64,000 bases of DNA from Dehalococcoidia bacterium (GTDB taxonomy: Bacteria > Chloroflexota > Dehalococcoidia > Bin125): contig CAXXRD010000001.1 of the NCBI GenBank assembly GCA_963663895.2, forward strand, positions 640,001 through 704,000, read 5' to 3'. Below, piece by piece: positions 45,713 to 64,000 of this stretch. Below the pieces are notes generated by a model. The model saw nothing but the letters and a program-made list of their open reading frames with translations, searched no databases and had not been told where the DNA came from. Positions within the stretch are counted from its first letter, which is position 1. Every line of letters begins with the position of its first letter. The translations under genes were made by a program, and so were the position numbers.

Positions 45713-45841
45713 GCCCGCGATGATAGCCGCCCGCGCCCGGCCGTCCCCGTCCCTCGCCTTTTCGCTCTGGCAAGATGTAGCGCGCGGCACCAAAGGGACG
45801 GCTGCCGCGATGTGCCGGAGTATTCTGAAAGAGGGAGCGTC

Positions 45842-46946: not shown

Positions 46947-48110
46947 CTAGGGCGCCGCCGCGCGAAACTCCCCGCACTCCCCGACCGCGCCCGAGCGGTA
47001 GCGGGCGAGCTGATCGCGATCGAGCTGAACGCCCAACCCCGGTGCCGCGGGCAGGCGCATCATGCCGGCCTCGATAGGCAGGGAGCGCCGCACCAGATCC
47101 GCCGCCAGCAGCGACGCCGTCGCGAGTCCGCAGGCCGGGGCCGGAGCCGGCAACATCGCCGCCAGCTGCAGGGCGGCGGCCGTGCCGATAGCGGTATCGA
47201 TCGTCGTCGTGACGACGGCGGCCGCACCCGCGTTTCGGGCGAGCCGCGCGATCTCGGCGGCCGGCCGCAGTCCGCCCAGCGACATCGGCTTGAGCACCAG
47301 TAGGTCGGCCGCGCCCGCCTGGAGCAGCACCCGCGCCGCAGCGGCGTCGCCGACGCTCTCGTCCGCGGCGATCCGGAGGCGCGTTTCCCGGCGCACCGCC
47401 GCGAGTCCGGCGACATCCGCGACCGGTTGCTCCACCCATTCGAGATCGTACCTCGCCAGCGCGGAGAGCATCGCGATCGCTTCAGCGACCGTCCAGGCGC
47501 CGTTGGCGTCCAGGCGCAAGCGCACCGCCGGCCCGAGCGCCTCGCGGGCCGCCGCGACCCGCAGCCGTTCGGCTTCGAACGTGTCCGCCACTCCGACCTT
47601 CAGCTTCACGGCGGGGTAGCCGGCGGCCCGCGCACGCGCGCCGGCGGCCCGGACATCCTCGGGCGCGCCCGCGCCGATGATGGCGTTGACCGGAACGGCA
47701 GCCGCGGTCCGACCGCCGTACTCCCGCACGAGTTGCGCGGCCACCGGCAGGCCCGCCGCCCGGCTCGTTAGGTCGAGCTGGGCGACATCGAGCGCGCAGC
47801 GGACCGCTTGCCTCCCCGGCCGCTCGGGCAGGGCATCGAGCCGTTCCCGTGCGGAGATCCAGTCCGCGCCCACCAGGAGCGGCCCGATCTCGCGCAGCAG
47901 GTCGGCGGCAGCCGGGGCGCCGCCTTCCGCCCGCTCCGGCAACGGCGAGGCCTCTCCCAGGCCGCAGGCGCTGCGGTCGCTCTGGAGCTCAACGATGAGA
48001 CCCTCGCGCGCCTTCAAGGGCGCGCCGGGCGCCGACCCGATCGAAAACTCCTGGGCGAAGGGAACCCGAAAGGGCGTCCAGCGAATGCCAGCGATGCGCT
48101 CGGGCACCAC
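46947..48110 (-). CDS. menC: o-succinylbenzoate synthase
   Basis: Enolase superfamily: GEASPLP, KLKVG, LDANG, EQP, ADES, LKPM; directly downstream of menD. Confidence 0.85.
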   Translation of the reverse strand: MVPERIAGIRWTPFRVPFAQEFSIGSAPGAPLKAREGLIVELQSDRSACGLGEASPLPERAEGGAPAAADLLREIGPLLVGADWISARERLDALPERPGRQAVRCALDVAQLDLTSRAAGLPVAAQLVREYGGRTAAAVPVNAIIGAGAPEDVRAAGARARAAGYPAVKLKVGVADTFEAERLRVAAAREALGPAVRLRLDANGAWTVAEAIAMLSALARYDLEWVEQPVADVAGLAAVRRETRLRIAADESVGDAAAARVLLQAGAADLLVLKPMSLGGLRPAAEIARLARNAGAAAVVTTTIDTAIGTAAALQLAAMLPAPAPACGLATASLLAADLVRRSLPIEAGMMRLPAAPGLGVQLDRDQLARYRSGAVGECGEFRAAAP

Positions 48111-48125: not shown

Positions 48126-49904
48126 CTAGAGGCTGCCCTTCGCCGCCAGCGCCGCGCGCGCGCGCGCGCCGGCGGCCGACCACAGGCGGCGATGGAGTGC
48201 GACGTTCGCCTCACGGTCGCTTGGCACCTCGATCAGCTGCACGCCCGGGCTTCGCAGGGAGTCGGCGAGGGCCGCGTCGAAGGACGCGACATCGTGCGCG
48301 CGCGTGTGGGCGAGTCCGTACAGCGCCGCCACCCGGGCGAAGTCGAGCCCGTGCGGCGTGCCGAACAGCTCTTCGAAGTGCTCGACGGCGGTTGCCTGGG
48401 GCAAGAAGGAGAAGATGCCGCCGCCGCCGTTGTTGAGAAGCACGACGGTAGCGCCGACCTCGCGCTCGCGCGCGGCCAGCAAACCGTTCATGTCGTGGTA
48501 GAGCGAGAGGTCGCCGATCAGCAACACCAGCGGCCCTTCGCCCACGGCGGCCGCCCCCAGCGCCGCCGAGACCACGCCGTCGATGCCACTCACGCCACGC
48601 TGCCCAAGGAAGCGCACGGCGGCGCGGCGGCATGGGAAGAAAGTGTCGATGTCGCGCACCGGCAGGCTGTTGCCGGCGAAGAGCGTGGTCCCGTCCGGGA
48701 GAGCGGCGGCGACGCGCGTCACCGCCTGCGGCTCGGAGAGCACGCGCTCCTCGCTCAGGGTCTCGGCGACGGCCTCTCGTCCGGCGGCGGCGGCGATCCG
48801 CCAGCGCTCAACCCACTCCGGCGAGCCGCCGCGACCGCCCCCCGCCGCGGCGGCGGCCAGCAGCGCCTCGCAGAGGCTGCGCGCGTCGGTGTGCAGGGCG
48901 GCGGCAGCGGACAGCGTGGGATCGTTCCAGCCGTCCTCGTCCGTCACAACGATCTGCTCGATCGAGGTGTCGCCGAGGAAGTCGAGCAGCGGCCGCGAGG
49001 TGGGGGTCGCCCCGAAGCGCAGAACCACACGCGGCCGCAGCGCCTCGGCGACCGCGGGATCGCGCAGGAAGGCATCGTAGCCATCGATCACGTGCTCCAG
49101 CGAGTGGGGCCCGCACCGCGCCTGCGACAGCGAATCCGCGAGCACCGGCATCACCAGCGCCGCCGCCAGCTCAGCGACCACGGCGGGAAAGTCCGGATCC
49201 CCTTGCGGGCCGCACACGATCAACCCCCGCTCCGATCGCAGGCGGTCCAGCAGCGCCAGCGTCTGATCCGGCGTGGGGCGGCGCTCGGTGTGCGTGATCG
49301 CCAGATCGGGCAGCGCGCCGGCTTCGGCGCCCGCGCGCGCCGCGGGGACAAGCGGCTCCCGGAACGGCATGTTGATATGGACGGGCCCGGCCGGCGTCGC
49401 GGCAGCCAGCGCCGCCGCGCGGGCGGCCGTCGCGCCGGCGTAGCGGCGCAGATGAGCCCCGCCCTCTGGAAGGGCAAGCTCGATGAACCGCTTGACCGTT
49501 GATCCGTACAGGCCGATCTGGTCCATCGTCTGATTCGCGCCCACGCTCCGCAGCTCGTGCGGCCGGTCGGCCGTGAGCACCAGCAGCGGCACGCGCCCCT
49601 GGCGCGCCTCCGCGACCGCGGGAGCGAAGTTCAGCGCGGCCGTTCCCGATGTCGAAACCACCGCGACCGGTTCGCGGCCCGCTTTGGCGATCCCGAGGGC
49701 GAAGAACGCTGCGGACCGCTCATCGAGATGCATCCATAAGCGGACGGCGGGATGGCGGCGCAGAGCGAGCAGCAGCGGCGTCGAGCGGGAGCCGGGACAG
49801 GCGCAAGCATGGCGCACGCCGGCCTGCACCAGCCCGTTCACGAACGCCTCGACGTAGCCGGCGAGAACGGTTCCCGGGTCGTCCCCTTGTGCCGCTAGGG
49901 ACAT
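48126..49904 (-). CDS. menD: SEPHCHC synthase
   Basis: CPGSRSTPL, DERSAAFFALG, TSGTA, GPVHIN, RGVSGIDG, GDLSLYHD, NNGGGGIF. Confidence 0.95.
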   Translation of the reverse strand: MSLAAQGDDPGTVLAGYVEAFVNGLVQAGVRHACACPGSRSTPLLLALRRHPAVRLWMHLDERSAAFFALGIAKAGREPVAVVSTSGTAALNFAPAVAEARQGRVPLLVLTADRPHELRSVGANQTMDQIGLYGSTVKRFIELALPEGGAHLRRYAGATAARAAALAAATPAGPVHINMPFREPLVPAARAGAEAGALPDLAITHTERRPTPDQTLALLDRLRSERGLIVCGPQGDPDFPAVVAELAAALVMPVLADSLSQARCGPHSLEHVIDGYDAFLRDPAVAEALRPRVVLRFGATPTSRPLLDFLGDTSIEQIVVTDEDGWNDPTLSAAAALHTDARSLCEALLAAAAAGGGRGGSPEWVERWRIAAAAGREAVAETLSEERVLSEPQAVTRVAAALPDGTTLFAGNSLPVRDIDTFFPCRRAAVRFLGQRGVSGIDGVVSAALGAAAVGEGPLVLLIGDLSLYHDMNGLLAAREREVGATVVLLNNGGGGIFSFLPQATAVEHFEELFGTPHGLDFARVAALYGLAHTRAHDVASFDAALADSLRSPGVQLIEVPSDREANVALHRRLWSAAGARARAALAAKGSL

Positions 49905-51298
49905 CCCAGCGCCCAGCGCATCGACTGCATTTTGAGGCGGGATTCCTCGTACTCGCGTGCGGGTTCCGACCCCGCCACGATTCCGCAGCCCGCATACAGG
50001 CGGGCACGGGTTCCGTTGATCAGCGCCGACCGAATCGCGACGACGAACTCCCCGTCTCCGCGGGCGTCCATCCAGCCCAGTGGTCCGCCGAACCAGCCAC
50101 GGTCGAAGGGCTCCGCGCGCCGCAACAACCGCTGCGCCCGCTCGCGGGGGACCCCGCCGACCGCCGGCGTGGGGTGCAGACGCAGCGCCACATCAAGCGC
50201 GGTCGCCGGGCCGTCGAGCGCGCCCCTGATCTCCGTGTACAGGTGCTGCACATTCGCCAGGCGCAAGAGCGACGGCGCGCTATCGGCGCGCAGTTCGCTG
50301 CAGAGCGGCCGCAGTCCGTCTTCCAGAGCACGCACCACGAGCGCATGCTCATGCTGCTCCTTGGAGTCCGCCAGCAGCTCCGCGCTCAAGGCCGCATCGC
50401 GGGCGGGATCGGCGGCGCGCGGCGCGGACCCCGCGACAGCCGCCGTTCGCACGATCCCCTCTCGCTGGGTGACCAGCAGCTCCGGCGTGGCGCCGATGAA
50501 ACAGCCAGCGCCGCGATCGATCGCGAACACGGTGCAGTCCCCGTAGCGCGACCTGAGCCGCCGAAGGGCAGCAGGCAAGTCGAACGGGCGCTCCGCCTCC
50601 AACTGTTGGCAGCGCGCGAGCACGAGCTTGTCGACCTCGCCGGCATCGATCGCGCCGACCATGCCCCCTGCCAGCTCACGCCAACGCGGGGGCGTCGGCT
50701 CCTCCATCGTGCGGAGAATGGCCGCCGTGGACGGAGCACCGGCCTCCAGGCAGGCCTGGTCTGCACCAAGACACTCATCAAGACGATCGAGGAGACGCAA
50801 GAGATTCGGCGCCGCGGCGCCCGCCGCGTCGGGAAGGAACTGCAGTTGCAGGAAGCGTGCAGATCCCCGCTGCACGGCGACCAGACGCGGAACGAAGGCG
50901 GCCCGCCGGGGCCATCCCTCCCAAGCACCATCGGGCGCCCGCTCCGGGTCGAAGGCGGCGCCGGTGAAAGAGAGCGGCCCCGGCTTCACTGGAGCAGCCC
51001 GAGCGTCCTTCGTCAGATCGAGCCAGAGGTCGGATGGGGACACGCCCCTTCGCTCGGGCAGAGTCTCGAGCCCGACGCCGGCGATCGCGATTGCGCCGCC
51101 GGGGCTGCGCCAATAGAGACGCTCCAGACCGGCCGCCTGCTCGAACAAGGCCAAGGGCTCGAACTCCGGCGCGGGCGCGGCCAGCGTGACGAGCGCATCC
51201 CGAGAGGCGGCCCGAGCACAATCGCTCGCCTCCCAAGCGGCGAGCCGCTCGCGAAGGGCCCTCAATCCGGTGCTGGCGGTGAGCATTGTGGCTGGCAT
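49895..51298 (-). CDS. menF: Isochorismate synthase
   Basis: KLVLAR, GATPELL, KEQHEH, VQHL, LHPTPAVGG, AGCGIV. Confidence 0.9.
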   Translation of the reverse strand: MPATMLTASTGLRALRERLAAWEASDCARAASRDALVTLAAPAPEFEPLALFEQAAGLERLYWRSPGGAIAIAGVGLETLPERRGVSPSDLWLDLTKDARAAPVKPGPLSFTGAAFDPERAPDGAWEGWPRRAAFVPRLVAVQRGSARFLQLQFLPDAAGAAAPNLLRLLDRLDECLGADQACLEAGAPSTAAILRTMEEPTPPRWRELAGGMVGAIDAGEVDKLVLARCQQLEAERPFDLPAALRRLRSRYGDCTVFAIDRGAGCFIGATPELLVTQREGIVRTAAVAGSAPRAADPARDAALSAELLADSKEQHEHALVVRALEDGLRPLCSELRADSAPSLLRLANVQHLYTEIRGALDGPATALDVALRLHPTPAVGGVPRERAQRLLRRAEPFDRGWFGGPLGWMDARGDGEFVVAIRSALINGTRARLYAGCGIVAGSEPAREYEESRLKMQSMRWALGCP

Positions 51299-51299
51299 C

Positions 51300-51335
51300 T
51301 CAAAACCGACTGAACCGTCGGTTTTGACGCTAGCA
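51300..51335 (-). promoter_or_regulatory. menF promoter (extended -10 TGCTAGCGT) and palindromic operator
   Basis: TCAAAACCGAC-TGAACC-GTCGGTTTTGA 11-bp inverted repeat at 51300-51327; a second copy lies at 63676-63697. Confidence 0.75.
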
Positions 51336-51469
51336 AACCGCTCCGGGGGCAACAAGACGCGGCCCGCCGCCGCACGAGAGCGGGCGCGGCGCCCTCGTAT
51401 ACTGATGCGCGTTCGGCATGTCTAGAGGCCGTCCGCAAGCCGGACGGGCCTTTCCCGAAAGGAGCGGCC

Positions 51470-52240
51470 ATGGCCGCCGTCCCCGGCGAGGTGCAAGACC
51501 TCAGCCAGATCGAAACCAGCTCCACTACCTATGAGAGCGACGGGGCCTCGATCGAGGCCTATCTCGCACGGCCACGGGGCGGGGGCTCCGGCGGCGGCAT
51601 CATCGTGATTCATGAGGCGTTCGGGCCCGTCGAGCACATCCACGACATCGCGCGGCGCTTCGCCAACATCGGCTACACGGCGATCGCGCCGAACCTCTAC
51701 AGCCGCATGGGGGCGCCGGACGTGGACGACATGCAGTCCGTGTTCACGAAGATGTTCGGCCTCCCCGACCCGCAGGTGGTGCGCGACTTGGAGGGCGCGG
51801 CGGCGCTGCTGCGCGGCCAGCCGGGAAGTAACGGCAAGGTGGGCTGCATCGGCTTCTGCTCGGGCGGGCGGCAGACGCTGCTCTACGCCTGCTCCAGCGA
51901 CACCGTCGACGCAGCGGTGGATTGCTGGGGCGGTTTCATCCGCCGCGCCAACCAGGACGCCGTCACCACTCCCGAGCGCCCGACCCCCATCCTCGACCTC
52001 GTCGACCAGCTCCACTGCCCCCTCTACGCCGTCTTCGGCGGCCATGATCAGAACCCCACGCCCACCGACGCGCGTGAGATAGAGGCGCGGCTACAGCGGG
52101 CGCGGAAAACCTCCACCGTGGAAGTGTTCGAAGAGGCCGGGCATGCGTTCCTCGCGGACTACCGTCCCAGCTACCACGAGAGCGCCGCCTTCGCGCTTTG
52201 GCCGAAGATCGTGGCCTTCTTCGAGACGCATCTCCGCTAG
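51470..52240 (+). CDS. Dienelactone hydrolase family protein
   Basis: IHEAFG, GFCSGG, GGHD, AGHAF. Confidence 0.92.
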   Translation: MAAVPGEVQDLSQIETSSTTYESDGASIEAYLARPRGGGSGGGIIVIHEAFGPVEHIHDIARRFANIGYTAIAPNLYSRMGAPDVDDMQSVFTKMFGLPDPQVVRDLEGAAALLRGQPGSNGKVGCIGFCSGGRQTLLYACSSDTVDAAVDCWGGFIRRANQDAVTTPERPTPILDLVDQLHCPLYAVFGGHDQNPTPTDAREIEARLQRARKTSTVEVFEEAGHAFLADYRPSYHESAAFALWPKIVAFFETHLR

Positions 52241-52647
52241 CGATCGAGCGGGCGGGCGAAGCTGAGCTCGTGGCCGTCGGGATCGGTGACGTGAAAATAG
52301 CGCTCGCCCCAGCTCGCGTCGCGCGGCTCGGTATCGGTCTGCACGCCGGCAGCGGCGGCCCGGCGATAGAAGGCGTCGACATCGGAGACGTAGAACACGA
52401 TCCGCCCCCACCAGCTCCAGCGGCGCTCCGCCGGCTGAGCCGTCAGGTTGAGATAGCCGCTCTCCAGCGCGAAGCTCGTGAAGCGCTCCGCCTCGCCGCC
52501 GTACAGCAAGGTGAAGCCCAAGGCGCGATAGAAGCGCACCGCGCCGACCATGTCGTGCGTCGCCAGCGTCACGGCGCTCACGCACGTGACCGTGGGCCGC
52601 GCTTCGCCGGCAGCGGATTCAGTCGGGTCGGACGCTTCCATAGCCAC
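52237..52647 (-). CDS. VOC/glyoxalase family protein
   Basis: AVTLATHDM..FYRALGF, PRDASWGERYFHVTDPDGHELSF; start GTG 52647 or ATG 52641. Confidence 0.88.
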   Translation of the reverse strand: MAMEASDPTESAAGEARPTVTCVSAVTLATHDMVGAVRFYRALGFTLLYGGEAERFTSFALESGYLNLTAQPAERRWSWWGRIVFYVSDVDAFYRRAAAAGVQTDTEPRDASWGERYFHVTDPDGHELSFARPLDR

Positions 52648-52672
52648 GATGCGATCATAGGACAGCATCCGC

Positions 52673-53863
52673 GTGCCGTCTGACGGGCTCCCGGCGCGGG
52701 CCGAGATCGTCATCGCCGGCGGCGGCGTGATCGGACTGGCGACCGCGCTCGAACTCCTGAAAAGAGAGCGGGAGGTGTTGATCGTCGAGCGATCGCGGCC
52801 CGGCGCCGGCGCCAGCACGGTGGCGGCGGGCCTGCTGGCTCCCACAGCCGCGGCCGACCTGGCCGAGCCGCGGCTCATCGACTTCGCCCTGGACAGCCTG
52901 CGGCGCTACCCCGCCTTCGTCGCGGAGATCGAACGGATCAGCGGCCAGCGCTGCGAGCTGCGCGACCAGGGATCGCTCTGGCCCGCCTTCACATCGCACG
53001 ACGAAGCCAAGCTGGACGAGCTGGCGGCGCAGCATCGCCGGCGCGGGATCACATCGATGCGGCTGACGGCGGAGGAGCTGCGCGCGTACGCGCCGCAGCT
53101 CGCGGCAGCGACGCGCAGCGGCCTGCACGTCAAGGACGACCTCCGCCTCGATCCGCGACGGCTCGTGCAAAGTCTGGCCGGGGCGGTCCGGGAGCGCGGC
53201 GGGAAAATCCGCAGCGGCTACGCGGTCCGCGAGATCGTCCTTGCAGGCGGCGCGGTGCAGGCCGTCCGCACGACCGACGACGCCGGCCGGGACCACACGG
53301 TTCCCTGCGATGTCGCGGTGCTGGCCGCGGGCGCCTGGGCCACGGCCTCCCTCCGCTCGCCGTTGACGGCGGCGCCCGTGCGCCCGGTCAAGGGTCAGAT
53401 CGTGCGCCTGCGCGGCGCCACCTTGATTCAGCACGCCCTGCGCACGCCCGGGATATACCTCGTGCCGCGGGACGACGGGGAGCTGATCATCGGCGGCACG
53501 ATCGAGGAGCAGGGATTCGACCAGGCGCCCACCGCGGGCGCCGTGGCCGGCCTCCTCGATCGCGCCAGGGCGGTCGTGCCGGCGATCGACGATCTCGTGA
53601 TCAGCGAGCTCTCCGTGGGCCTGCGCCCGGCGCTGCCCGACTACCTGCCCGCCGTCGGACCCACCGGCGCCGCCGGCTTCTACGCGGCGGTCGGCCACTT
53701 CCGCAGTGGCATCCTCCTCGCCCCGGCGACGGCGCACTACCTCGCGGAGGCGATCGTCTCTGGCACCGTGCCCTCCGCGCTGGACTCGCTCAGCCCCGAT
53801 CGCCTGGGCGGGGAGAGCACGCCGGCGCCCCTGCCCGGAGCGACCGGCGAAGCGGTGCGCTAG
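52673..53863 (+). CDS. thiO: Glycine oxidase ThiO-like FAD-dependent oxidoreductase
   Basis: GGGVIG, ASTVAAGLLAP, PVKGQ, YLVPR, GLRP, GHFRSGILLAP. Confidence 0.8.
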   Translation: MPSDGLPARAEIVIAGGGVIGLATALELLKREREVLIVERSRPGAGASTVAAGLLAPTAAADLAEPRLIDFALDSLRRYPAFVAEIERISGQRCELRDQGSLWPAFTSHDEAKLDELAAQHRRRGITSMRLTAEELRAYAPQLAAATRSGLHVKDDLRLDPRRLVQSLAGAVRERGGKIRSGYAVREIVLAGGAVQAVRTTDDAGRDHTVPCDVAVLAAGAWATASLRSPLTAAPVRPVKGQIVRLRGATLIQHALRTPGIYLVPRDDGELIIGGTIEEQGFDQAPTAGAVAGLLDRARAVVPAIDDLVISELSVGLRPALPDYLPAVGPTGAAGFYAAVGHFRSGILLAPATAHYLAEAIVSGTVPSALDSLSPDRLGGESTPAPLPGATGEAVR

Positions 53864-54552
53864 TCCGGCGCTCCCTCGGCGGCGGCCTCGAAGCGGCGCA
53901 TAATGGCGACGCAGCGCTCGTCCGCAACCGGGCGAAAGTCCTCGTAGAACGCGCCCACCGCGACGAAGGGATCGGGCGTTACCACCGCCAGCACCCGCGC
54001 GTCCAGCCCTTCCAGCCGCGCCACCGCCTCCCGGGCCGCCACTGGGACCCCCACCACGACGGCCGCCGCGCCGGCCCGCCGCGCCGCCTCCACGGCCGCC
54101 GCCATCGTCGCGCCGGTGGCCAGCCCGTCGTCGACCAGCACGATGCGGCGGTCCGCAACCGGCGGCGCCGGGCGGGCGCCGCGATAGACCCGCTCGCGGC
54201 GCTCCACTTCGGCGAGCTCGTCCTGCCTCGCCCGCCGCAGGTCCTCCTCCGAGAGGCGGTGCGCGGCGAGCAGGGCACGGTTCCACGCAGATCCGAGACG
54301 CGTAACGGAGCCCAGCGCCAGCTCCGGCTGCCCCGGCGCGCCCACTTTGCGCGACACCAGCACGTCCAGCGGCAGAGCGAGCCGCTCGGCGACCGGCTCC
54401 GCCACCTCTAGCCCGCCGCGCGGGATCGCCAGCACGATCCCCGCCCCAACGCTGCGCTCCTGCAGCAGCGACGCCAGCGCCTCGCCCGCCGCGCGGCGAT
54501 CGCGGAAGATCGGGGGGCCGTCCGCCTCCCCTCCCAGCCATCGGCGCCACAT
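53860..54552 (-). CDS. Phosphoribosyltransferase family protein
   Basis: FRDRRAAG, LAIPRGG, RKVGAP..PELA, LVDDGLATGAT. Confidence 0.88.
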   Translation of the reverse strand: MWRRWLGGEADGPPIFRDRRAAGEALASLLQERSVGAGIVLAIPRGGLEVAEPVAERLALPLDVLVSRKVGAPGQPELALGSVTRLGSAWNRALLAAHRLSEEDLRRARQDELAEVERRERVYRGARPAPPVADRRIVLVDDGLATGATMAAAVEAARRAGAAAVVVGVPVAAREAVARLEGLDARVLAVVTPDPFVAVGAFYEDFRPVADERCVAIMRRFEAAAEGAPD

Positions 54553-54746
54553 ACGCGTCTCCTTGGCGCATAGCATCGCACGGCCGGGAGGCGTATCGAG
54601 GAGCGCGCTTCCCCTCGGCCGCCCAGGCTACGGTGACAGACTCTGCCTCCGGTCCGCTGGAGCAGCATCGCGCGACGGGGTCAGGTGGCACCCGTCTTAC
54701 CGTGCCCGGCCGGGCGAAGCAGCGACCACGCAGGCGGATGACTGCT

Positions 54747-55946
54747 TCAGTCGGTTGCGGTGGTCAACAGAGCGATGCTGGCCGTGAAGCCGTGGACGAA
54801 ATTGGCGCCGCCCACGGGGCCGATCTCGCCGTTACAGAAGAGACCGGCGGTGGGGATGGGACCGAGCGCGGCGGCGAGGGCTCCGGCGTCGTGGTGCGGC
54901 TCCCCGAACAGCCCCTGTCCGCGCCCGTTGCAGGCGCACAGCATCGCGCCCACCACTTGCTCTTCCTCCGCGAGCGCATCCTTCAGCGTAGCGAGCTGCG
55001 ACTGCAGGTCCGCATCGGCGGCCGCGGCGTCGCGGTACTGAAACTGGAAGGTCTGGCCCACGCGGGGGATCGCATTGATTGCGATGGCGCCGCTCTCCTG
55101 GTCGGCGCCCATGAGATTGCGAATCAGGAAATCCCCTTGGGCGTGCTCGTCGCGGTACTCGTCCATCGCTAGCCCCACCAAGAGGTTGCGCTGGGCGCGC
55201 TCCTGGGTCTCCGGGTCCAAGGCGCCGAGCGTCTCCCGCAGAACGTCCAGCGCCGGCCGCGATCCGACCGTCTGGATCACGTTCCGCTCGCAATCGGTGA
55301 TCGTCCAGGCCTGTCCGATCGGCGTCGCCCCCTGGGCGACGAGCGCGCGAAAGCCCACGGCGCCGCTCAACCCGAGCAGCACGGCGCCGGTTGCGTGGAC
55401 TTCGCCGTCCAGGAAGACGGCCGTGCCCTCGCGCTGGTTGTGCGCCGACGCCAGCCCACCCAAGACCGGCGTGCGCGGCCAGCGCCGCTCGATCGCGCCC
55501 ACCAGCGCGTCGGCATGCGTGCTGAAGGGGTCCGCGAGCGCCAGCCAGGCCGACATTTCCCCGTGGTCCCGGGCCCCGTCGAGCAGCGCCTCGACGCGGC
55601 TGTTCTCGGTCAGCGCCAGCGGCGTCAAGGTCGCGCCCGGCAACCGCAACGTCATCACCGCGACGGCGACCCCGTCCTCGGCCTCCAAGCCAGGCCCGAT
55701 CACGCTCTGCCCAGAGCAGCCGAGGAGATGCGAGGCCCCGGTGCCGCCGCGGACGCGCTCGACGACCGCGGCGTAGTCGTCGCCAAAGTGGGAATCGACG
55801 AAGAGGAGGGCGAGGTCGGGCGGGGCGCCGGGCCGGGGCAGCCCCGCGAGCGCGGCCTCCGTCGCTTCGTCCCAGGTCTCTCCCGTCCCCAGCGCTGCGG
55901 CCGCTCGATCGTTGGCAGCTCGCGCGACCGCGCCCGCCTGCTCCAT
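54747..55946 (-). CDS. FIST domain (N+C) sensory protein
   Basis: LLGCSG, LADPF, GGLAS, AQGATPIG, CNGRG, FCNGEIGP. Confidence 0.88.
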   Translation of the reverse strand: MEQAGAVARAANDRAAAALGTGETWDEATEAALAGLPRPGAPPDLALLFVDSHFGDDYAAVVERVRGGTGASHLLGCSGQSVIGPGLEAEDGVAVAVMTLRLPGATLTPLALTENSRVEALLDGARDHGEMSAWLALADPFSTHADALVGAIERRWPRTPVLGGLASAHNQREGTAVFLDGEVHATGAVLLGLSGAVGFRALVAQGATPIGQAWTITDCERNVIQTVGSRPALDVLRETLGALDPETQERAQRNLLVGLAMDEYRDEHAQGDFLIRNLMGADQESGAIAINAIPRVGQTFQFQYRDAAAADADLQSQLATLKDALAEEEQVVGAMLCACNGRGQGLFGEPHHDAGALAAALGPIPTAGLFCNGEIGPVGGANFVHGFTASIALLTTATD

Positions 55947-56049
55947 GGCTCCCCCTTGGATCGAATCCGCTGCTCGTCTGAGTGTAACCCTCGCCGGAGT
56001 GGCGGTGCATGCGCGTCGCACGGCTACGATGGTCTGGAGGGGAGAACGG

Positions 56050-56952
56050 ATGGCAACCGAGACGCCGCCCGAGCTTGGGGCGATCGAGCAAGCCGCAGCG
56101 GAGTTCGCCAGGCGCGCCGGGGCGCTGCTCAGCGAACGTTTCCACGACGGCACCGCAGTCCGCTTCAAGGACCGCCGCCGCTTGGATCCCGTCACGGACG
56201 TGGACCACGCCGCGGAAGCGATACTGCGCGAGGCGGTGCACGCGCGCTTCCCGAGCCACGCGCTGCTCGGCGAGGAGGAGGACAGTTCGGGCCCGCCCGA
56301 GGCCGACTACGTCTGGGTGGTGGACCCCCTGGACGGGACCGCCAACTTCGTCAACGGCTTGCCGTTCTTCACAAGCTCGATCGGCGTGCTCTACCGCGGC
56401 GAGCCGCTCGCCGGCGCCATCTGGGTCAGCAGCGGCCCACAGCTCCAGGCGGGGGTGTATCACGCCGCGCGCGGAGCGGGCCTACAGTTCGACGGCTTGC
56501 CCCTGCTCCGCGCGCCGCAGACCCTCGACCAAGCCAATCGGTTGATCGCGGTACCGGGCGGGTGGCGCGGCGGCAGCGGCCCGCGCGGCCGCCGCCTCGG
56601 CATCGCTCGCACGCTCGGCAGCATCGCCTTGGAGCTGGCGCTCACAGCGGACGGCAGCCTGGGCTGCTGTGTGATCAACGACGCCAAGATCTGGGACGTC
56701 GCGGGCGGCATCGCGCTTTGCTCGGCGGCCGGCCTGCAGGTGTCCGCCAAGAGGAAGAACGGGGACTGGCGTCCCTTCGAGCGCTTCGCCGGCAGCGATC
56801 AAGGAGCGCCGAGCGTCGACGGCCTGCGCGCTTGGCGCGAGAGGATCGTGGCGGGCGATCCCAAAGCAGTGCAGGAACTGACGCGCGGCTCCGCCCGCCG
56901 GCAAGGCCGGGTCGCCCGGCTGCGCCGGTCCCTGCTCGGCGCGCGCGCCTAA
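56050..56952 (+). CDS. Inositol monophosphatase family protein
   Basis: LGEE, WVVDPLDGTANF, WDVAGG. Confidence 0.88.
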   Translation: MATETPPELGAIEQAAAEFARRAGALLSERFHDGTAVRFKDRRRLDPVTDVDHAAEAILREAVHARFPSHALLGEEEDSSGPPEADYVWVVDPLDGTANFVNGLPFFTSSIGVLYRGEPLAGAIWVSSGPQLQAGVYHAARGAGLQFDGLPLLRAPQTLDQANRLIAVPGGWRGGSGPRGRRLGIARTLGSIALELALTADGSLGCCVINDAKIWDVAGGIALCSAAGLQVSAKRKNGDWRPFERFAGSDQGAPSVDGLRAWRERIVAGDPKAVQELTRGSARRQGRVARLRRSLLGARA

Positions 56953-56972
56953 GCCGGCGCCGCGACGCGCGC

Positions 56973-57767
56973 TTAGTGGTTGGTCTTGAACTGCCCCCCG
57001 TCGACGAGGATGTTCTCCGCCGTCACCCAGCTCGCGGCGGGGCTGGCGATGAAGGCGACGACCCGCGCCACTTCCTCCACGGTGCCGTAGCGGCCGCTGG
57101 GAATCGTGTCGAGCACGCCGTCGTACACCGGTCTGGCTCCCTGCGCCATCTGCTGCCAAAAGCCGCCCTCGAAATCAATGGAGCCGGGGGAGATGACGTT
57201 CACGCGGATTCCCTTGGGCGCCAGCGCTTGCGCCAGCTCGTTGCCGTAGGCGATCAGCGCCGCCTTCATGGGTCCGTAGGAAAAGGGGCCGCCCATTCCC
57301 TCCCGCACGTTGCGATCGCCGACGAACCCAAACGCCTCCATCCCGGAGATGCTGGCGATCAAGACGATGCTGCCGGCAGCGCTCGCCTCCAGGGCGGGCA
57401 TCGCCTCGTCGACGCCGCGCACGGCGGCCATCACGTCGATCGCGTAGTTCACGTCCCAGCCCTCTTCGCCGGGGACGCCCATACCGCTAGCGTTGTGGAT
57501 GAAAATGTCGAGCCCGCCCAGCGCCTCGACCGTGGACTGCACGAAGCCGCAGATGCCGTCCGCTTCTCCGATATCGGCCTGATGCGCGACGACCCGGCCC
57601 GGCGCCTCCGCTTGCAGGGCGGCCCGGGCCTGTTCCAGCCCCTCCGCCCCCCGCGCGCAGATTCCGACGGATGCCCCTTCCGCCAAGAGCGCCGCCGCGA
57701 TCGCGCGGCCGATGCCGCGACTGCCGCCCGTCACGAGCGCCTTCTTGCCAGTCAGCCCGAGGTCCAT
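56973..57767 (-). CDS. SDR family oxidoreductase
   Basis: TGGSRGIG, YGPMK (YxxxK), IRVNVISPG. Confidence 0.93.
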   Translation of the reverse strand: MDLGLTGKKALVTGGSRGIGRAIAAALLAEGASVGICARGAEGLEQARAALQAEAPGRVVAHQADIGEADGICGFVQSTVEALGGLDIFIHNASGMGVPGEEGWDVNYAIDVMAAVRGVDEAMPALEASAAGSIVLIASISGMEAFGFVGDRNVREGMGGPFSYGPMKAALIAYGNELAQALAPKGIRVNVISPGSIDFEGGFWQQMAQGARPVYDGVLDTIPSGRYGTVEEVARVVAFIASPAASWVTAENILVDGGQFKTNH

Positions 57768-57857
57768 AACGCGCTCCTTACATTGCCGATATCGCCGCTG
57801 GCTGCACTGCCGCGTGGCGGGCGAGCGGAGGCTACATCAGCCGCGATCCCCACTGCC

Positions 57858-58295
57858 TCAACGGTAATTCCAGCTGACGACGCGCTCACGGGTGACCTGC
57901 ACGTAGACGCCGTCTTCGCTCACGGAATCGGGCAACTCCGTCTCCGGCGCGCCGCGCTGGCGCGCCAAGCCGCGCGCCAGCTCCAGCCGTCTTCCGGGAT
58001 CCCGAATCAGCGTGCCGCTGCCCTGCACCAGCACGCCGGTAATGTCCCCCGTCGCTTTGGCGGAGGTGACCAACACCGACACGTGCGGGTTGCGCTCAAT
58101 GTTCTTGATCTTCTGCGAGCCTTCACGCATCCCCAAATACAAGTGGCCGCCCAGACGGAAGTAGCCGAGGGGCACGCTATGGGGCCTGCCATCCCTTCCA
58201 ACGGTCGTGAGCACGGCCCACTCGGCGCGCCGATCGAGATAGGCGTTGACCTCGTCTTCGCTCAGCTCGCGGCGCTGCTTACGCTTGCGTGCCAC
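57858..58295 (-). CDS. Pyridoxamine 5'-phosphate oxidase-like (split beta-barrel) protein
   Basis: DGRPHSVPL, SQKIKNIERNPHVSVLV, VVSWNY; GTG start inferred. Confidence 0.82.
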   Translation of the reverse strand: MARKRKQRRELSEDEVNAYLDRRAEWAVLTTVGRDGRPHSVPLGYFRLGGHLYLGMREGSQKIKNIERNPHVSVLVTSAKATGDITGVLVQGSGTLIRDPGRRLELARGLARQRGAPETELPDSVSEDGVYVQVTRERVVSWNYR

Positions 58296-58359
58296 TGTCG
58301 CTCCCGGCCGCCGATCGTCCGCCGCTACGATACCGGACGCGGCGAAGGGAGACGTATTC

Positions 58360-59028
58360 GTGCGGATCGTGCTGGGACGCAAGACAGGGGACCTCAGTGC
58401 CGACGGATTCCGCTTGCGGGCGGCGCCGTACCGCTTGACCCTGCTCGACATCGGAACCGGCGACGGCGCCTTCCCCTACCGCGTCGCAGGCGCCTATCCC
58501 GAGGTGCTCTGCATGGGGCTGGATCCAAACCGCGAAGCGCCGGCAGCGTACGCCGGCAGGGCGCGGCGCAAGCCCGCGCGCGGCGGACGCGCCAACGTGC
58601 TCTACGTGGCGGCGGCGGTTGAGGCGCCGCCGGACGCTCTCGACGCGAGCGCGGATCTCGTCACGATGAACTTCCCCTGGGCCGGCTTGCTCGCACGGAT
58701 CCTCGCCGGCGACCCCGCCCTGACCGCCGCCCTGACCAAGATGGCACGCGAGCCTTGGGCCCTGCAGATCCTGCTGAACGCGGCAGCGCCGCCCCCACCC
58801 TTGGAGCGCGCGCTCGGCGTCCTGACGCCCGCGACCGTGCGTGAGCGCCTCGATCCCGCGCTGGGGTCCGTCCGGGTGACAGAGCTACCCGAGACGGCCC
58901 GCGTCGCCAGTCGTTGGGGAGGGCGGCTGATCCGCGGGAGCAGACGCCCGATCATCCGCGTTCGGGCTGACTTCGGCGCCGTCCCGCCGCAGTACGACGC
59001 CCTGCTCAATGCCGCGATCGGGCTCTAG
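58360..59028 (+). CDS. kamB: 16S rRNA (adenine(1408)-N1)-methyltransferase, KamB/NpmA family
   Basis: MRIVLGRK.., DIGTGDG, KPARGGRANVLYV, NFPWAGLL, SRWGGRL are collinear with recalled KamB/NpmA motifs. Confidence 0.78.
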   Translation: MRIVLGRKTGDLSADGFRLRAAPYRLTLLDIGTGDGAFPYRVAGAYPEVLCMGLDPNREAPAAYAGRARRKPARGGRANVLYVAAAVEAPPDALDASADLVTMNFPWAGLLARILAGDPALTAALTKMAREPWALQILLNAAAPPPPLERALGVLTPATVRERLDPALGSVRVTELPETARVASRWGGRLIRGSRRPIIRVRADFGAVPPQYDALLNAAIGL

Positions 59029-59066
59029 AGAGCCGCTCCAGAGAAACGCTCCAGCGGGGAAAGCGC

Positions 59067-59915
59067 CTAGCGATCCGCGACGATCTTGGCGAGGTCATCC
59101 AAGATCGGGATGACCTTGTCAGCGTAGGCGCTGGGAAGGTCGAACAGGCAGCGATCGACGCCCATCTCCTCGTAGGCGTCCAGCCAGGCAGCGTCGGGAC
59201 GAGTGCCGTAGAGCGTCACGCTCACGCTGCCGGGATCGCGACCAACCCTCTCGGCGCGCTCCCGCAGATCGGCGATCTCGGCCGCCAGCTCCTGAGGGGC
59301 CTTGAACAACGGCAGCCAGCCGTCCGCCCACTCCACCACCCGCTGCCGCGACCACTTGGTCCCTGCGCCGATGTAGATCGGCGGATGCGGCTGCTGCACC
59401 GGCGCCGGGCGCACCGATGTGCGTTCGACGTTCACATGCGCGCCGTGGTATTCGGCCTCCTCGCTCGCCCAGAGCGCTTTCATCGCCTCCACTCGCTCGC
59501 GGGCCACGGCCCAGCGCTGCTTGAACGGCGTCCCCAGCGCCTCCATCTCCTCCGCCAGCCAGCCGGCGCCCACCCCGAACAAGAAGCGCCCTCCGGAGAG
59601 CCGATCGATGCTGGCCACTTGCTTCGCCATCACGATCGGCTCTCGCTCAATCACGAGACAGATCGCCGTACCCACCTGGAGGGTCGTCGTCGCGGCGGCG
59701 GCCATGCTGAGGCAGACGAAGGGGTCGTAGGAGCGGAAGTACCACTCCGGCATGTCGATGCTGTTGGTGCCCGGAAAGGGCGTGACCCGTTCGGAGGGGA
59801 TATGCGGATGCTCGGGCATCCAGAGCGAGTCAAAGCCCCGCTCCTCGACCGCCCGTGCCAATTCGTCCGGTGCAATCGTATGGTCCGTGATGAACATCGA
59901 ACAGCCGAACTGCAC
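59067..59915 (-). CDS. LLM class F420-dependent oxidoreductase
   Basis: GFDSLWMPEH, DPFVCL, SGGRFLFGVGAGW, WADGWLP. Confidence 0.9.
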   Translation of the reverse strand: MQFGCSMFITDHTIAPDELARAVEERGFDSLWMPEHPHIPSERVTPFPGTNSIDMPEWYFRSYDPFVCLSMAAAATTTLQVGTAICLVIEREPIVMAKQVASIDRLSGGRFLFGVGAGWLAEEMEALGTPFKQRWAVARERVEAMKALWASEEAEYHGAHVNVERTSVRPAPVQQPHPPIYIGAGTKWSRQRVVEWADGWLPLFKAPQELAAEIADLRERAERVGRDPGSVSVTLYGTRPDAAWLDAYEEMGVDRCLFDLPSAYADKVIPILDDLAKIVADR

Positions 59916-60045
59916 GCGGGCCTCCTTTACTCCAGTCGAGTCTCCAGCCGCACTGCCCGATCATCACGACCGGGCAAGCGCGTCCTCGCTTGTACGCCAC
60001 CGTATGATAGCCGCCGCGGATGCGGCGTCACGGGCAACCAAGCCG

Positions 60046-60954
60046 TTAGGTAAGCTTCGTCTTGAGAGCCTCGAACCGCTCTCTGGAAACGGACAGCTCG
60101 CGCAGGGCGACGGGCCGCTCGGGCTCCATCTGAATCGCGGTGGTTTGCGCATCCAAGGTGTCGCGCTCCTCGCGATAGAAGAGGCCCAGGGGGATGCGGT
60201 CGCCCCATTCGAGGCTCCGCCGGAACGCCTCGGTCCTATCGGTCGGGTCGTGCTCTTCCGCTAAGTCGTAGACGCGCTGCTTGAACCATTTGTAGGTGTA
60301 TTCGACGCGGTTCCAGGTTACGCAGGGCTGGAGAATGTCGATGATGGCGTAGCCGGGATGCTCGATCGCCATGGCGATCAGGTCGCGCAACGGCTTCACG
60401 CTGCCGGAGAACCCGCGCGCGACGAAGGTCGCGCCCGCCGCCAGCGCGACGGAGATCGGATTGATCGCAAACTCCACGTTGCCCTCCGGCGTGGTGGAGG
60501 AGATGTAGCCGGGATCGGAGGTGGGGGAAGTCTGGCCCTTGGTCAGGCCGTAGGTCTGATTATTCTCGACCAGGTGTGTGAGATTGACGTTGCGCCGCAT
60601 GGCGTGGAGCCAATGATTGCCCCCTTCACCCAAGCCGTCCCCGTCGCCGGTCACGGCCAGAACGGTCATCTGATGCTGCACGAGGCGGAAGCCCTGTGCG
60701 ACCGGCAGCGCCCGGCCGTGGAGCGTCTGCCAACCGTTGCAGCGAATGTAATCGGGCAGCTTGGAGCCGCAGCCAATCCCCGACACCACCATCACACGAT
60801 GCGGCGCGATCTCCAGCCGGACCAGCGCCTGCTGCAGCGCGGCCAGGATGCCGAAGTCACCGCAACCGGCGCACCAGGTGTTCTCTTCGGTGAAGAGCGG
60901 CTTGTAGTCGTTCAAGGTTACGGACGATGGCGCAGGCGTTACGGTGGTCATCAC
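60046..60954 (-). CDS. korB: 2-oxoacid:ferredoxin oxidoreductase beta subunit
   Basis: WCAGCGDFGIL, SGIGC, LHGR, GDGD, YGLTKGQTSPT, LQPCVT. Confidence 0.92.
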   Translation of the reverse strand: MMTTVTPAPSSVTLNDYKPLFTEENTWCAGCGDFGILAALQQALVRLEIAPHRVMVVSGIGCGSKLPDYIRCNGWQTLHGRALPVAQGFRLVQHQMTVLAVTGDGDGLGEGGNHWLHAMRRNVNLTHLVENNQTYGLTKGQTSPTSDPGYISSTTPEGNVEFAINPISVALAAGATFVARGFSGSVKPLRDLIAMAIEHPGYAIIDILQPCVTWNRVEYTYKWFKQRVYDLAEEHDPTDRTEAFRRSLEWGDRIPLGLFYREERDTLDAQTTAIQMEPERPVALRELSVSRERFEALKTKLT

Positions 60955-62693
60955 GCGATCTCCTCCAGCTGCTCCATGACCCAGCCGGGCGTCATGTGGC
61001 GGCCGTCGTACTTGAGGATCCTGTTCGGGATCTCGATGCCGGTCTGCGCGCGCAAGTGCCGGGCAAGCTGACCGGTGAAATTCTGCTCTACGGCGACGAG
61101 CGCCTTCGCTCGTTCCAGCGGCTCCGCTCCTCCCGCAGGGAACGGCTGTAGGTCAGTGTAGTGGATCAGATTGAAGCGGCCCTCCGAGCGGTCGACGACT
61201 TCGGTCAACACGCCCCAGGTCCCGCCCCAAGCGACCAACGAGACCGGCGCCTCGGCCGGTCCGTAGACGGTCGGGGGTTCCATCTGGGTGTGCGCGCCTT
61301 CCAGCTTGCGCATACGCTTCCGCATCATGGCGATGCGGTTCGTGGCCTCTTCGGTGATGCCGCCGAACTCGTCGTGCTCGTCGGACATGCCGTGTACCAA
61401 CGCGTTCGGATGGCCGGGCACCGCGCGGGGACTGACCCCGTCTTCGCTGAAGGCATAGCGACCGTAGGGCTCGGCCAGCTCCTCAATCGCATCGTAGGTC
61501 AGCGTCTTGCCGCGATCGATCTCCGCCGCCACCGTCTCCAAATCGAGCGCGCTGGTGGGAACGGAGACGAGCGAGTTCGAGGTAAAGAGGTCGCTGAGCA
61601 GAATCACGGGACACTGGTACTGCTCGGCGAGGTTGAAACAGCGGGCCGTCCGGTAGAACCCATCGACCGCGTCCTTGAGCGCCGTAACGATCATCGGGAA
61701 CTCGCCGTGGCCTGCGTGCATGGCGAAGTGAAGGTCCGGCTGCTCCGTGCGCGTGGCGAGGCCAGTGGCGGGCCCCCCGCGTTGAACCTCGACGATCACC
61801 ACCGGGACCTCGTTCATTCCCGCCAGCGAGAGGTGCTCCACCATGAGTGCGAAGCCGCCGCCCGAGGATCCGGTGAGCGCGCGCACCCCACCCCAGGACG
61901 CTCCCAGCGCGAAGGCGATCGCCGCGATCTCGTCTTCCGTCTGCTGGACCACGATGCCGAGATCACGCGCGCCCGTCAGCTCTTCGAGAATGGTCGACCA
62001 CGGAGTCATGGGGTAGCCGCTAACGGCCTTGCAGCCCGCCGCGATCGCTCCCAGGGCGACTGCCTGGTTGCCGTGGATCAGCATTGAGGGGCCGGCGCCG
62101 TTCCCCGCTGGAGGAGGAGGCAGCCGGTGGGGGAAGCCGTCCACCCGCTCGGCGCCCCACTCGTAACCGGCGCGCGCCACCGCCAGGTTCTCCTCGACGG
62201 CCGCCTCGCCCTTGCGGGAGAAGTTCTCGCGGATAATCTGCGCGACGGCATCGAAATCGAAGTTGGTCAGCGCCGAGGCGATGCTGAGCGCCACGGTATT
62301 GGCCATCACCTTGTCGTTGCCGACCGTCGTCGCGATCTCGATCAGAGGCGCTGGGACCGCACGAGCGCCGGCATCCGCGATCGCGCCGGCGTCGACATCG
62401 TCGCGGCCCGTGTCGTAGATGACGGCGCCGCCCGCCCGCATCTCCGGCACGTGCTGGGGCACGGAGACATCGTCGAGGGCGATAAGGATCGAGTGCTGCC
62501 GGGCATGCGCGCGGACCGGCTCGTCGGAGGCGCGCAGTTGGTAGAAGTTATGTCCTCCACGAATGCGCGATTCGTAATCCTGCGCCGCGAAAACATGGTA
62601 CCCGGCACGGACATGGGCCTTGGCTAATCCCGCCCCCGACGACTCCACGCCCTGCCCGGCAGCACCTCCAATTGTGTAGGTCACTTCAGGCAT
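60951..62693 (-). CDS. korA: 2-oxoacid:acceptor oxidoreductase alpha subunit
   Basis: GGAAGQG, YESRIRGGH, GYPMTP, EDEIAA, QRGGPATG, EQNFTGQL. Confidence 0.92.
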   Translation of the reverse strand: MPEVTYTIGGAAGQGVESSGAGLAKAHVRAGYHVFAAQDYESRIRGGHNFYQLRASDEPVRAHARQHSILIALDDVSVPQHVPEMRAGGAVIYDTGRDDVDAGAIADAGARAVPAPLIEIATTVGNDKVMANTVALSIASALTNFDFDAVAQIIRENFSRKGEAAVEENLAVARAGYEWGAERVDGFPHRLPPPPAGNGAGPSMLIHGNQAVALGAIAAGCKAVSGYPMTPWSTILEELTGARDLGIVVQQTEDEIAAIAFALGASWGGVRALTGSSGGGFALMVEHLSLAGMNEVPVVIVEVQRGGPATGLATRTEQPDLHFAMHAGHGEFPMIVTALKDAVDGFYRTARCFNLAEQYQCPVILLSDLFTSNSLVSVPTSALDLETVAAEIDRGKTLTYDAIEELAEPYGRYAFSEDGVSPRAVPGHPNALVHGMSDEHDEFGGITEEATNRIAMMRKRMRKLEGAHTQMEPPTVYGPAEAPVSLVAWGGTWGVLTEVVDRSEGRFNLIHYTDLQPFPAGGAEPLERAKALVAVEQNFTGQLARHLRAQTGIEIPNRILKYDGRHMTPGWVMEQLEEIA

Positions 62694-62842
62694 AGCAACG
62701 TCCTTACGAGATTCGACAACTCACGCCCTGTCGAAAGATGGCATTGAGTGAGCCGCCCGCTGGACAGGAGCAGTATACCCATTACGGACCCGTGCCAAGG
62801 CCCCATCTTCCAACCCAAGCCGACCCAAGGCCGATCGCACCC

Positions 62843-63592
62843 CTACGAAGGGCTCTCTACATCAGGCAGCGGGCGGCGGGCGCTGTGCAGAGTGACGGTT
62901 CCGGCCCCCATGCGCCGAAACCGTACGTGCACCGCTCCCGCATCCGTCAGCATGCGCGCCAGCGCTTCGGCGTCGGGATAGCCATCAAGCGAACGCGACA
63001 AGTAACGATAGGCCTCATGGTCACCGCTCAGCCGGGCCGCGACTCCCGTCGCCAATTGATGGAAGAGGAAGCGGCGGGGCAGCGCGAGCGGGCCCGACGG
63101 TACATGGGTGATATCCAACGCCACCAGCCGCCCGCCCGGCCGCAGGACCCGCAACATCTCCCGTAAGCCCTGGGACAGGTCGACGAGGTTCCGCAGCAGG
63201 AAGCCACTGGTGACGGCGTCGAAGCTGGCGTCGGGGAAGGGGATCTGCAGTGCGTCGGCCTGCAAGGCCGAGGGCGGTGCTTCCCCGCGCGCCGCCGCCT
63301 TGCGACGGTCCGCTACCAACATCGGCCGCGTGAAGTCGACGCGGACCACTCGCGCCGCGCCCGCGTGTTCCAGCGCCTGTGCGAGGTCGCCCGTACCGGA
63401 GCCGAGATCCAGCACGTAGGCGCCTTCGGGCTCGGCCGCCGCTGCCGCGGCATGCCGCCAGCGTCCGTCCAGCCCGATGGTCATGCAGCGGTTCATGCGG
63501 TCGTACCACGGGACGAGACGCCCGAACATCGCTTGGATCGCGACTGCCCGCTCGCGATCGGGTTCGGGAAGCGTCGGATGTCGAGTGGTCAT
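62843..63592 (-). CDS. menG: Demethylmenaquinone methyltransferase (UbiE/MenG family)
   Basis: MFGRLV..YDRMN, LDLGSGTGD, ADAL..PF, LRN, RVLRPGG, AYRYL. Confidence 0.85.
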   Translation of the reverse strand: MTTRHPTLPEPDRERAVAIQAMFGRLVPWYDRMNRCMTIGLDGRWRHAAAAAAEPEGAYVLDLGSGTGDLAQALEHAGAARVVRVDFTRPMLVADRRKAAARGEAPPSALQADALQIPFPDASFDAVTSGFLLRNLVDLSQGLREMLRVLRPGGRLVALDITHVPSGPLALPRRFLFHQLATGVAARLSGDHEAYRYLSRSLDGYPDAEALARMLTDAGAVHVRFRRMGAGTVTLHSARRPLPDVESPS

Positions 63593-63661
63593 CGCACCGC
63601 CCACGCGCTCCAGCGGTCGCGCGCCCTCTCTCGCACACGCTTGTGAGCCGTTGCCGCGCTT

Positions 63662-63698
63662 TGCTAGCGTAGCCGAAACCGACCACCGAGTCGGTTTT
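63662..63698 (+). promoter_or_regulatory. TetR gene promoter (extended -10 TGCTAGCGT) and palindromic operator
   Basis: AAACCGAC-CACCGA-GTCGGTTT at 63676-63697, same half-sites and spacing as upstream of menF. Confidence 0.75.
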
Positions 63699-63714
63699 CG
63701 CTCCGCGAGGCGCC

Positions 63715-64000
63715 ATGGTCGGGAAACAAGCGCGAGCACGCGACCGCAAGCAACGCATCCTCGAAGCCGCCGCCGATGTTTTCGCGCAGCGCGGCTACGG
63801 CGACGCAGGGGTCGACGAGATCGCGACGGCGGCGGGCACCTCGAAGGGCGGGCTCTATTTCCACTTCTCCGGGAAGGAAGCGCTACTGATCGCACTCCTT
63901 GATCATACGAGCCGGCTGCTGATGAGCCGCGTTCGCGCGGCGCTCGACGAACAGGAGGAACCGGTGGACAGAGCGGCGGCGGCGCTGCTGACGCTGCTGC
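63715..64000 (+). CDS. TetR/AcrR family transcriptional regulator (truncated by window end)
   Basis: Not in ORF track. Manual translation: MVGKQARARDRKQRILEAAADVFAQRGYGDAGVDEIATAAGTSKGGLYFHFSGKEAL. Confidence 0.92.
   Translation, partial: MVGKQARARDRKQRILEAAADVFAQRGYGDAGVDEIATAAGTSKGGLYFHFSGKEALLIALLDHTSRLLMSRVRAALDEQEEPVDRAAAALLTLL

Follow-up and report, generated by a model that had tools for sequence, protein, structure and literature searches.

Many bacteria use menaquinone (vitamin K2) as their respiratory quinone. The quinone-linked repressors QsrR, YodB and MhqR belong to other protein families than TetR, act on detoxification genes and sense through cysteines. BioQ-type TetR repressors of actinobacteria are dedicated to biotin biosynthesis, and their palindromic operators precede both the operons of the pathway and the repressor gene. 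Control of menaquinone synthesis is known mainly at the level of the enzyme, and the available parts of two reports describe an allosteric inhibition of MenD by 1,4-dihydroxy-2-naphthoate (DHNA) in Mycobacterium tuberculosis and Staphylococcus aureus (10.1101/841569, PMC9835592). The mechanisms linking the level of menaquinone to redox or energy status are termed unclear in the accessible text of the first of these (10.1101/841569). The nearest solved structures to the protein considered here are those of FadR from Bacillus. In B. halodurans, FadR binds as a dimer of dimers to two inverted repeats that are offset by 4 bp, according to the available part of the source (PMC5397183). In the searchable full-text literature, with subscription journals, RegPrecise and paper supplements outside its scope, no TetR protein or other dedicated transcription factor of the menaquinone (men) genes is described. 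Here we consider a TetR-family regulator and a palindromic operator, AAACCGAC-N6-GTCGGTTT, in a 64,000-nucleotide stretch of DNA from a Dehalococcoidia bacterium (the window, C1:640001-704000; the genome has five contigs, 2,374,484 bases and 66-67% G+C). The operator occurs twice, in front of two groups of men genes. With a probability of about 0.8, the regulator represses its own gene and the classical men pathway, to which it is dedicated; it would occlude both men promoters and answer to a metabolite bound non-covalently.

Two operator copies front menF-menD-menC and tetR-menB-menA

Operator 1 lies at 51303-51324, 4 nt from the start codon of menF, and scores 33.5 bits by a weight matrix made from 36 distinct operator sites in stored loci of relatives. 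Operator 2 lies at 63676-63697, 18 nt before the start of tetR and 83 nt from the start of menG, and scores 31.7 bits. An earlier note on this stretch had placed the palindrome at these two positions, one of them immediately before menF, and had seen no other copy in the window, and our searches agree with it. A search of the window with up to 3 mismatches returned these 2 matches, compared with a mean of 0.08 in 100 dinucleotide-preserving shuffles, of which 0/100 contained two or more. In the whole genome the exact copies are likewise 2, with 3 more places at 2 mismatches, and a reversed control pattern gave 0. The third-best place by the weight matrix is C2:181153-181174 (23.8 bits, 2 mismatches), and all others score 15.8 bits or less. 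C1:763952 and C2:610691 were rejected as members of the regulon on this score.

The genes behind operator 1 are on the minus strand. menF (49895-51298) encodes an isochorismate synthase of 467 amino acids (PF00425, E 2e-74; TIGR00543, 320 bits against a cut-off of 224.75), and its end overlaps by 10 nt with menD (48126-49904), the gene for 2-succinyl-5-enolpyruvyl-6-hydroxy-3-cyclohexene-1-carboxylate (SEPHCHC) synthase (TIGR00173, 461 bits against 244.2). The next gene, 15 nt after menD, encodes an enolase-superfamily protein (46947-48110; MR_MLE_C, E 3e-52) that scores 127.9 bits, just under the TIGR01927 cut-off of 130.55, and because of its position it is probably o-succinylbenzoate synthase (menC). 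At operator 2, menG/ubiE (62843-63592, minus strand) encodes a demethylmenaquinone methyltransferase (PF01209, E 1e-42; TIGR01934, 177.7 bits against 158.35) and is divergent from tetR. The 5' part of tetR occupies 63715-64000 on the plus strand, and the full gene runs to 64344 in window numbering (C1:703715-704344), coding for 209 amino acids; its product matches TetR_N (PF00440) over residues 15-61 (E 6.7e-18, 64.7 bits against a cut-off of 24). The co-directional menB (C1:704341-705180; 1,4-dihydroxy-2-naphthoyl-CoA synthase, 484.6 bits against 380) overlaps the end of tetR by 4 nt. menB is followed by menA (C1:705186-706094; DHNA polyprenyltransferase, 319.8 bits against 264) and, also beyond the end of the window, by a convergent nhaA. 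Because tetR overlaps menB, and menA follows beyond the window end, the two sites front menF-menD-menC and tetR-menB-menA. The calls of menF, menG and the TetR gene in the earlier note thus hold by their Pfam and NCBIfam matches. It had proposed menFDC and tetR itself as targets of the repressor; the positions of the sites support both, but the predicted regulon is larger, since tetR heads an operon with menB and menA. In the whole genome, nothing scored above the cut-offs for menE and menH.

A dienelactone hydrolase gene (51470-52240) is divergent from menF. It was not accepted as a member of the regulon, since it adjoins menF only in the genus of the window itself and lies about 1 kb off in one other genome. 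Just 5' of its ribosome-binding site, at 51428-51452, there is a G+C-rich inverted repeat followed by TTT.

Conservation of the regulator and its operator

Orthologues of the TetR protein were searched in 41 genomes at E<=1e-10, and 30 loci were then fetched. Of the 41 genomes, 34 have the orthologue, among them each of the 24 further family genomes. In each of the 23 fetched family loci tetR is followed by menB, with menA next wherever the flank reaches, and menG is divergent beside tetR in 22 of them; the remaining locus stops at a contig edge. In other families of the class, menF or menA adjoins tetR in 6 of 7 loci. Of the 30 loci, 27 have the core CCGAC-N6-GTCGG at a distance of 30-61 nt upstream of the start codon chosen for tetR; one locus lacks upstream DNA and two carry variants. 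The operator upstream of the orthologue is kept down to about 40% protein identity.

The earlier note had suggested scanning this genome and its relatives for the motif upstream of men genes, and had regarded a genome-wide abundance of the motif as speaking against a regulon. At 1 mismatch or fewer, the 25 family genomes hold 0-2 copies each: two in 12 genomes, one in 12 and none in 1, never more than two. The reversed control pattern is absent from 40 of the 41 genomes searched and occurs once in the remaining genome. Of the 12 family genomes with two copies, 11 (this genome and 10 others) have the second one 5' of menF. In the twelfth (G009), the second match has 1 mismatch and no men gene within 2 kb, and it was rejected as a regulon site. 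Five family genomes, chosen because they have no more than a single copy (one copy in four of them, none in the fifth), yielded neither a MenF at E<=1e-30 nor a MenD above the cut-off. This suggests that the copy number of the motif goes together with having a separate menF operon; the two-copy and one-copy groups were defined after the copy counts were known. menG, tetR-menB-menA and the operator are kept in G004, G007, G008, G009 and G018 (loci L148-L155). In these genomes no MenF was found at E<=1e-30 and the best TIGR00173 scores for MenD, 72-82 bits, lie under the cut-off, menC and menE not having been searched there. They may have the late men pathway only and depend on imported precursors. 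In G028, a perfect copy of the motif (L060:710-731) lies within a longer AT-rich palindrome between two SBP_bac_5 open reading frames (ORFs) on a 2.2-kb contig. This copy was also rejected as a member of the regulon, since it is flanked by ORFs for solute-binding proteins and its genome has no TetR match at E<=1e-10.

A profile scan with one genome per species gave 560 stretches that encode relatives of the regulator, of which the best 80 were retained. The titles among these best 80 of 560 are nearly all Chloroflexota, Dehalococcoidia, Chloroflexia, Thermomicrobiales, Nitrolancea, Sphaerobacteraceae, Thermobaculum, Limnocylindrales or Anaerolineae, and 5 of the 80 carry other labels. In 75 of the best 80, the next co-directional gene after tetR is menF (62), menA (8) or menB (5), and for the remaining 5 the downstream DNA is shorter than 770 nt. 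Among the 110 loci that contain the regulator, 97 have CCGAC-N6-GTCGG no more than 130 nt upstream of tetR; the other 13 have no upstream DNA or have the identical half-site at N2 or N10 spacing. In an independent lineage with the order tetR-menA (one complete genome), a second site again precedes menF. The footprinting suggested in the earlier note is therefore positive, as the operator is kept before the TetR orthologue and the second copy follows menF in 11 genomes and in this independent lineage. Many of the Chloroflexota sites have a 26-bp form, AAACCGACCGAC-GC-GTCGGTCGGTTT, which consists of two inverted repeats with a 4-bp offset. In the two operators of this genome only the outer repeat pair of this design is clear. 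Five matches to ACCGAC-N6-GTCGGT in other genomes were rejected as regulon sites, since no men gene lies within about 1.5 kb on either side and the one that was examined is intragenic.

Promoter geometry and the proposed repression

The 11-mer TTTGCTAGCGT occurs exactly twice in the genome, once beside each operator. On the menF side (51327-51337, minus strand) it contains a -10-like hexamer TAGCGT (51327-51332) with TG two bases upstream, and it ends 2 nt before operator 1; a putative -35-like TTGTTG (51350-51355, minus strand) lies 17 nt upstream of TAGCGT. On the tetR side (63660-63670, plus strand) it contains TAGCGT at 63665-63670, again with TG upstream, and ends 5 nt before operator 2, with a -35-like TTGTGA (63641-63646, plus strand) 18 nt upstream. 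The two men promoters here would thus consist of TTGTGA or TTGTTG, a spacing of 18 or 17 nt, and a TG-preceded TAGCGT. The earlier note had claimed an identical extended -10 before both sites. The shared 11-mer supports this, but the spacing to the operator differs, 5 nt for tetR and 2 nt for menF. When the 93 unique loci of relatives are anchored on the operator, 83 have a TAnnnT hexamer whose end lies 0-9 nt upstream of it, compared with 3-6 of 93 in upstream control windows and 0-2 of 93 in downstream ones. In relatives with lower G+C the hexamer is TACAAT or TATAAT, and the -35 resembles TTGATT or TTTACT. Since TAnnnT abuts the operator, the operator would span the expected transcription start, as the earlier note had predicted for the palindrome, and such a placement is that of a repressor. 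In five loci of other genera, an in-frame start codon of menG lies 15-16 nt from the operator, so that the menG promoter there would overlap the operator or lie beyond it. It is likely that menG is under operator control in some genera. This agrees with the suggestion in the earlier note that menG is a possible member, but in the present genome 83 nt separate the two.

We propose that a dimer of the TetR protein, or a pair of dimers, binds the palindrome. As the palindrome starts 2-5 nt after TAGCGT and lies over the presumed transcription start, the bound protein would block RNA polymerase at both menF-menD-menC and tetR-menB-menA. The divergent menG would probably be affected too in those relatives where it abuts the operator. 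A small molecule in the C-terminal pocket might alter the affinity for DNA without a covalent bond, either by release or by tighter binding. Our best guess is that the pathway itself supplies this effector, as an intermediate or as a product, namely o-succinylbenzoyl-CoA (OSB-CoA), DHNA-CoA or DHNA, and the odds for a men coenzyme A (CoA) thioester or DHNA are a little short of even. A lipophilic quinone or polyprenyl diphosphate is a possible but doubtful candidate, on a par with some other kind of molecule, and chorismate or isochorismate is slightly more doubtful still. Thiol-based sensing of quinones is unlikely because 22 of 27 orthologues are cysteine-free. The protein of this genome has 0 cysteines, and no alignment column has a conserved one.

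Several points weigh against such a repressor or limit the case for it. No promoter was called at operator 1 or operator 2 by a simple scan for sigma-70 promoters and terminators, and therefore the promoter assignment rests on the conserved TAnnnT beside the operator; TAGCGT itself agrees with TATAAT at 3 of 6 positions. An RNA run (a metatranscriptome, kept as contigs) contained a 0.05 share of the words, in fragmentary pieces that are mostly 90-99% alike, with none in the two operator bins, so that it is neutral on transcription and its starts. The genome-wide matrix scan found no operator near the best menE candidate or near the hydrolases matching the menH model, all of which are below the menH cut-off, and therefore the regulon falls short of the whole men pathway. 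The weaker third site at C2:181153-181174 lies inside an ORF for thiamin pyrophosphokinase. It was rejected as a member of the regulon and is probably a chance match; thiamin diphosphate is required by MenD, which we mention as a curiosity. Related genomes are not independent, and therefore the counts overstate the support. Finally, the usual logic of TetR proteins, in which the ligand frees the repressor, is not enough on its own to bring a biosynthetic pathway under feedback control.

This last point is readily explained if the TetR protein binds the operator as an activator, or as a dual regulator, of the men operons, since an end product that frees an activator would provide biosynthetic feedback. 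The TetR-type FasR activates fas in mycobacteria, and FasR is among the nearer relatives of the present protein (NCBIfam 78 bits; PDB 6o6n). However, the sites of activators are normally upstream of the -35, and here, in 83 of 93 loci, the operator immediately follows the -10-like hexamer and covers the presumed start, which makes activation unlikely. Another factor might bind the site while the TetR protein controls something else, and a first-look search found 5 candidates for further TetR-like stretches in the genome. Against this, the site precedes the TetR orthologue itself in 97 of the 110 loci whichever men gene adjoins, and the genome has a single match to the tetR product at E<=1e-10. 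The residues T42, S43, K44, G45, Y48, F49 and H50 of the recognition helix are invariant in 27 orthologues, and this invariant helix pairs with a CCGAC half-site that is likewise invariant. A separate binding factor is thus quite unlikely.

The palindrome could also act in RNA, as a hairpin in the 5' leader that affects stability, attenuation or translation, the link with the TetR gene being incidental. If transcription starts at its left edge the site would be transcribed, and a stem of 8 bp with a loop of 6 nt, followed by one more T, is possible. The arms are conserved as sequence and not as pairing, however: CCGAC and GTCGG are present in every locus with upstream DNA while the spacer is free, and the asymmetric variants …GTCGGATT, …GTCGGAAG and CGACCGAC… are uncompensated on the opposite arm. 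Repeated half-sites account for the spacings N2, N6 and N10, as they would in a protein operator, and the site is always found with the TetR gene. We therefore regard a role in RNA as very unlikely. A chance repeat, or a dispersed repeat without function, has nothing in its favour beyond the fact that the sequence is repeated, and its probability is negligible. Shuffled windows contained 0.08 copies on average, a genome holds two copies and not many, and across genera the position has been kept but the flanking intergenic sequence has not.

The repressor interpretation can be extended to a broader picture, which we put forward tentatively, as the whole combination is rather improbable. The locus would be the founding example of a phylum-wide dedicated men transcription factor in Chloroflexota, a FadR-like TetR repressor acting as a dimer of dimers, with OSB-CoA, DHNA-CoA or DHNA as an effector that ties quinone supply to flux. 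In lineages in which no menF or menD was found, it would gate a late salvage branch that receives its precursors from microbes nearby. At a more general level, the men TetR is probably a dedicated on/off switch for menaquinone synthesis. Such a regulator would add a transcriptional switch, directly testable, to the enzyme-level control by DHNA. The conserved regulator and its 22-bp operator may offer a route to the metabolite that reports quinone status, and the pair of regulator and promoter a ready-made sensor for vitamin K2 engineering. They would also give the Chloroflexota, in which few regulators are characterised, a further regulon.

Three further features of the window are recorded here. 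An ORF at 58246-59028 (plus strand) matches the NpmA-type 16S rRNA (adenine1408-N1) methyltransferase family (PF24675, E 1.6e-43, 148.9 bits with a cut-off of 60). It overlaps an opposite-strand ORF, resembling pyridoxamine-phosphate oxidase, at the 5' end of the latter. At 44300-46900, a CoA-transferase ORF (44300-46411, minus strand) and a Glu/Leu/Phe/Val dehydrogenase ORF (45467-46900, plus strand) overlap on opposite strands, both with real Pfam matches, and for at least one of them the listed start is probably too far upstream. At least half of the sampled words of 54001-64000 are present in 16 public runs, several of which are labelled sponge, coral or marine metagenome. The source organism is therefore probably a Chloroflexota associated with marine invertebrates.

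Comparison with described regulators

The protein belongs to the TetR/AcrR family, as it has the N-terminal helix-turn-helix and an all-helical C-terminal domain. The AlphaFold model is all helical with a predicted local distance difference test (pLDDT) value of 90.4, and a structure search with it gave at least 500 PDB matches at E<=0.001; among the matches listed, all are of the TetR family or the TetR fold (for example SlmA). The C-terminal Pfam matches, TetR_C_24 and TetR_C_4, are weak, and no NCBIfam model scored above its cut-off against the 209-residue protein. FadR of Bacillus (YsiA; PDB 1vi0, 3whb/3whc, 5gp9/5gpa/5gpc) is the best match by sequence, with profile E values of 1.6e-29 to 5e-29, and also by fold, with a target-normalised TM (template modelling) score of 0.85-0.89 at 24-26% identity; Thermus FadR, AibR and others come next. 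Membership in the curated FadR family was rejected (NF053878, 77.2 bits against a cut-off of 200).

FadR, which responds to acyl-CoA, is an autoregulated repressor with its operator on the promoter, and autoregulation and this operator placement are what we propose for the men TetR as well. The 26-bp operators of many Chloroflexota have the same 4-bp-offset layout as the B. halodurans FadR sites, as far as these are described in the available part of the source. The regulons differ, since the neighbours and the second operator of the men TetR point to men genes and FadR controls fatty-acid degradation. The half-sites also differ, CCGAC for the men TetR and ATGA(A/G)T for FadR. In B. subtilis FadR, the CoA moiety is held by R116, N120, R150, R153, E162 and Y174, according to the accessible text of the source (PMC5397183). 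At these six positions the profile of the men TetR has r, l, e, a, e and a, so that R116 and E162 match at the consensus, and neither is kept in the protein of this genome. Because the anchoring residues, as that text gives them, are not conserved, the FadR mode of CoA binding is unsupported and was rejected for the men TetR, and an acyl-CoA effector remains a lead only.

The feedback of DHNA on MenD, as the available parts of those reports describe it, is likewise a dedicated control of the men pathway through one of its intermediates, but it acts on the enzyme and involves no DNA-binding protein. QsrR and YodB-type repressors have a conserved redox-active cysteine, which is absent in the men TetR family, and the men TetR is linked to biosynthesis instead of detoxification. 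The BioQ repressors are likewise TetR proteins dedicated to one cofactor pathway, but the pathway, the phylum and the operator differ. In comparison with all these systems, what is new is the regulon and its phylum-wide spread, and the proposed mechanism is the known one of an ordinary TetR repressor.

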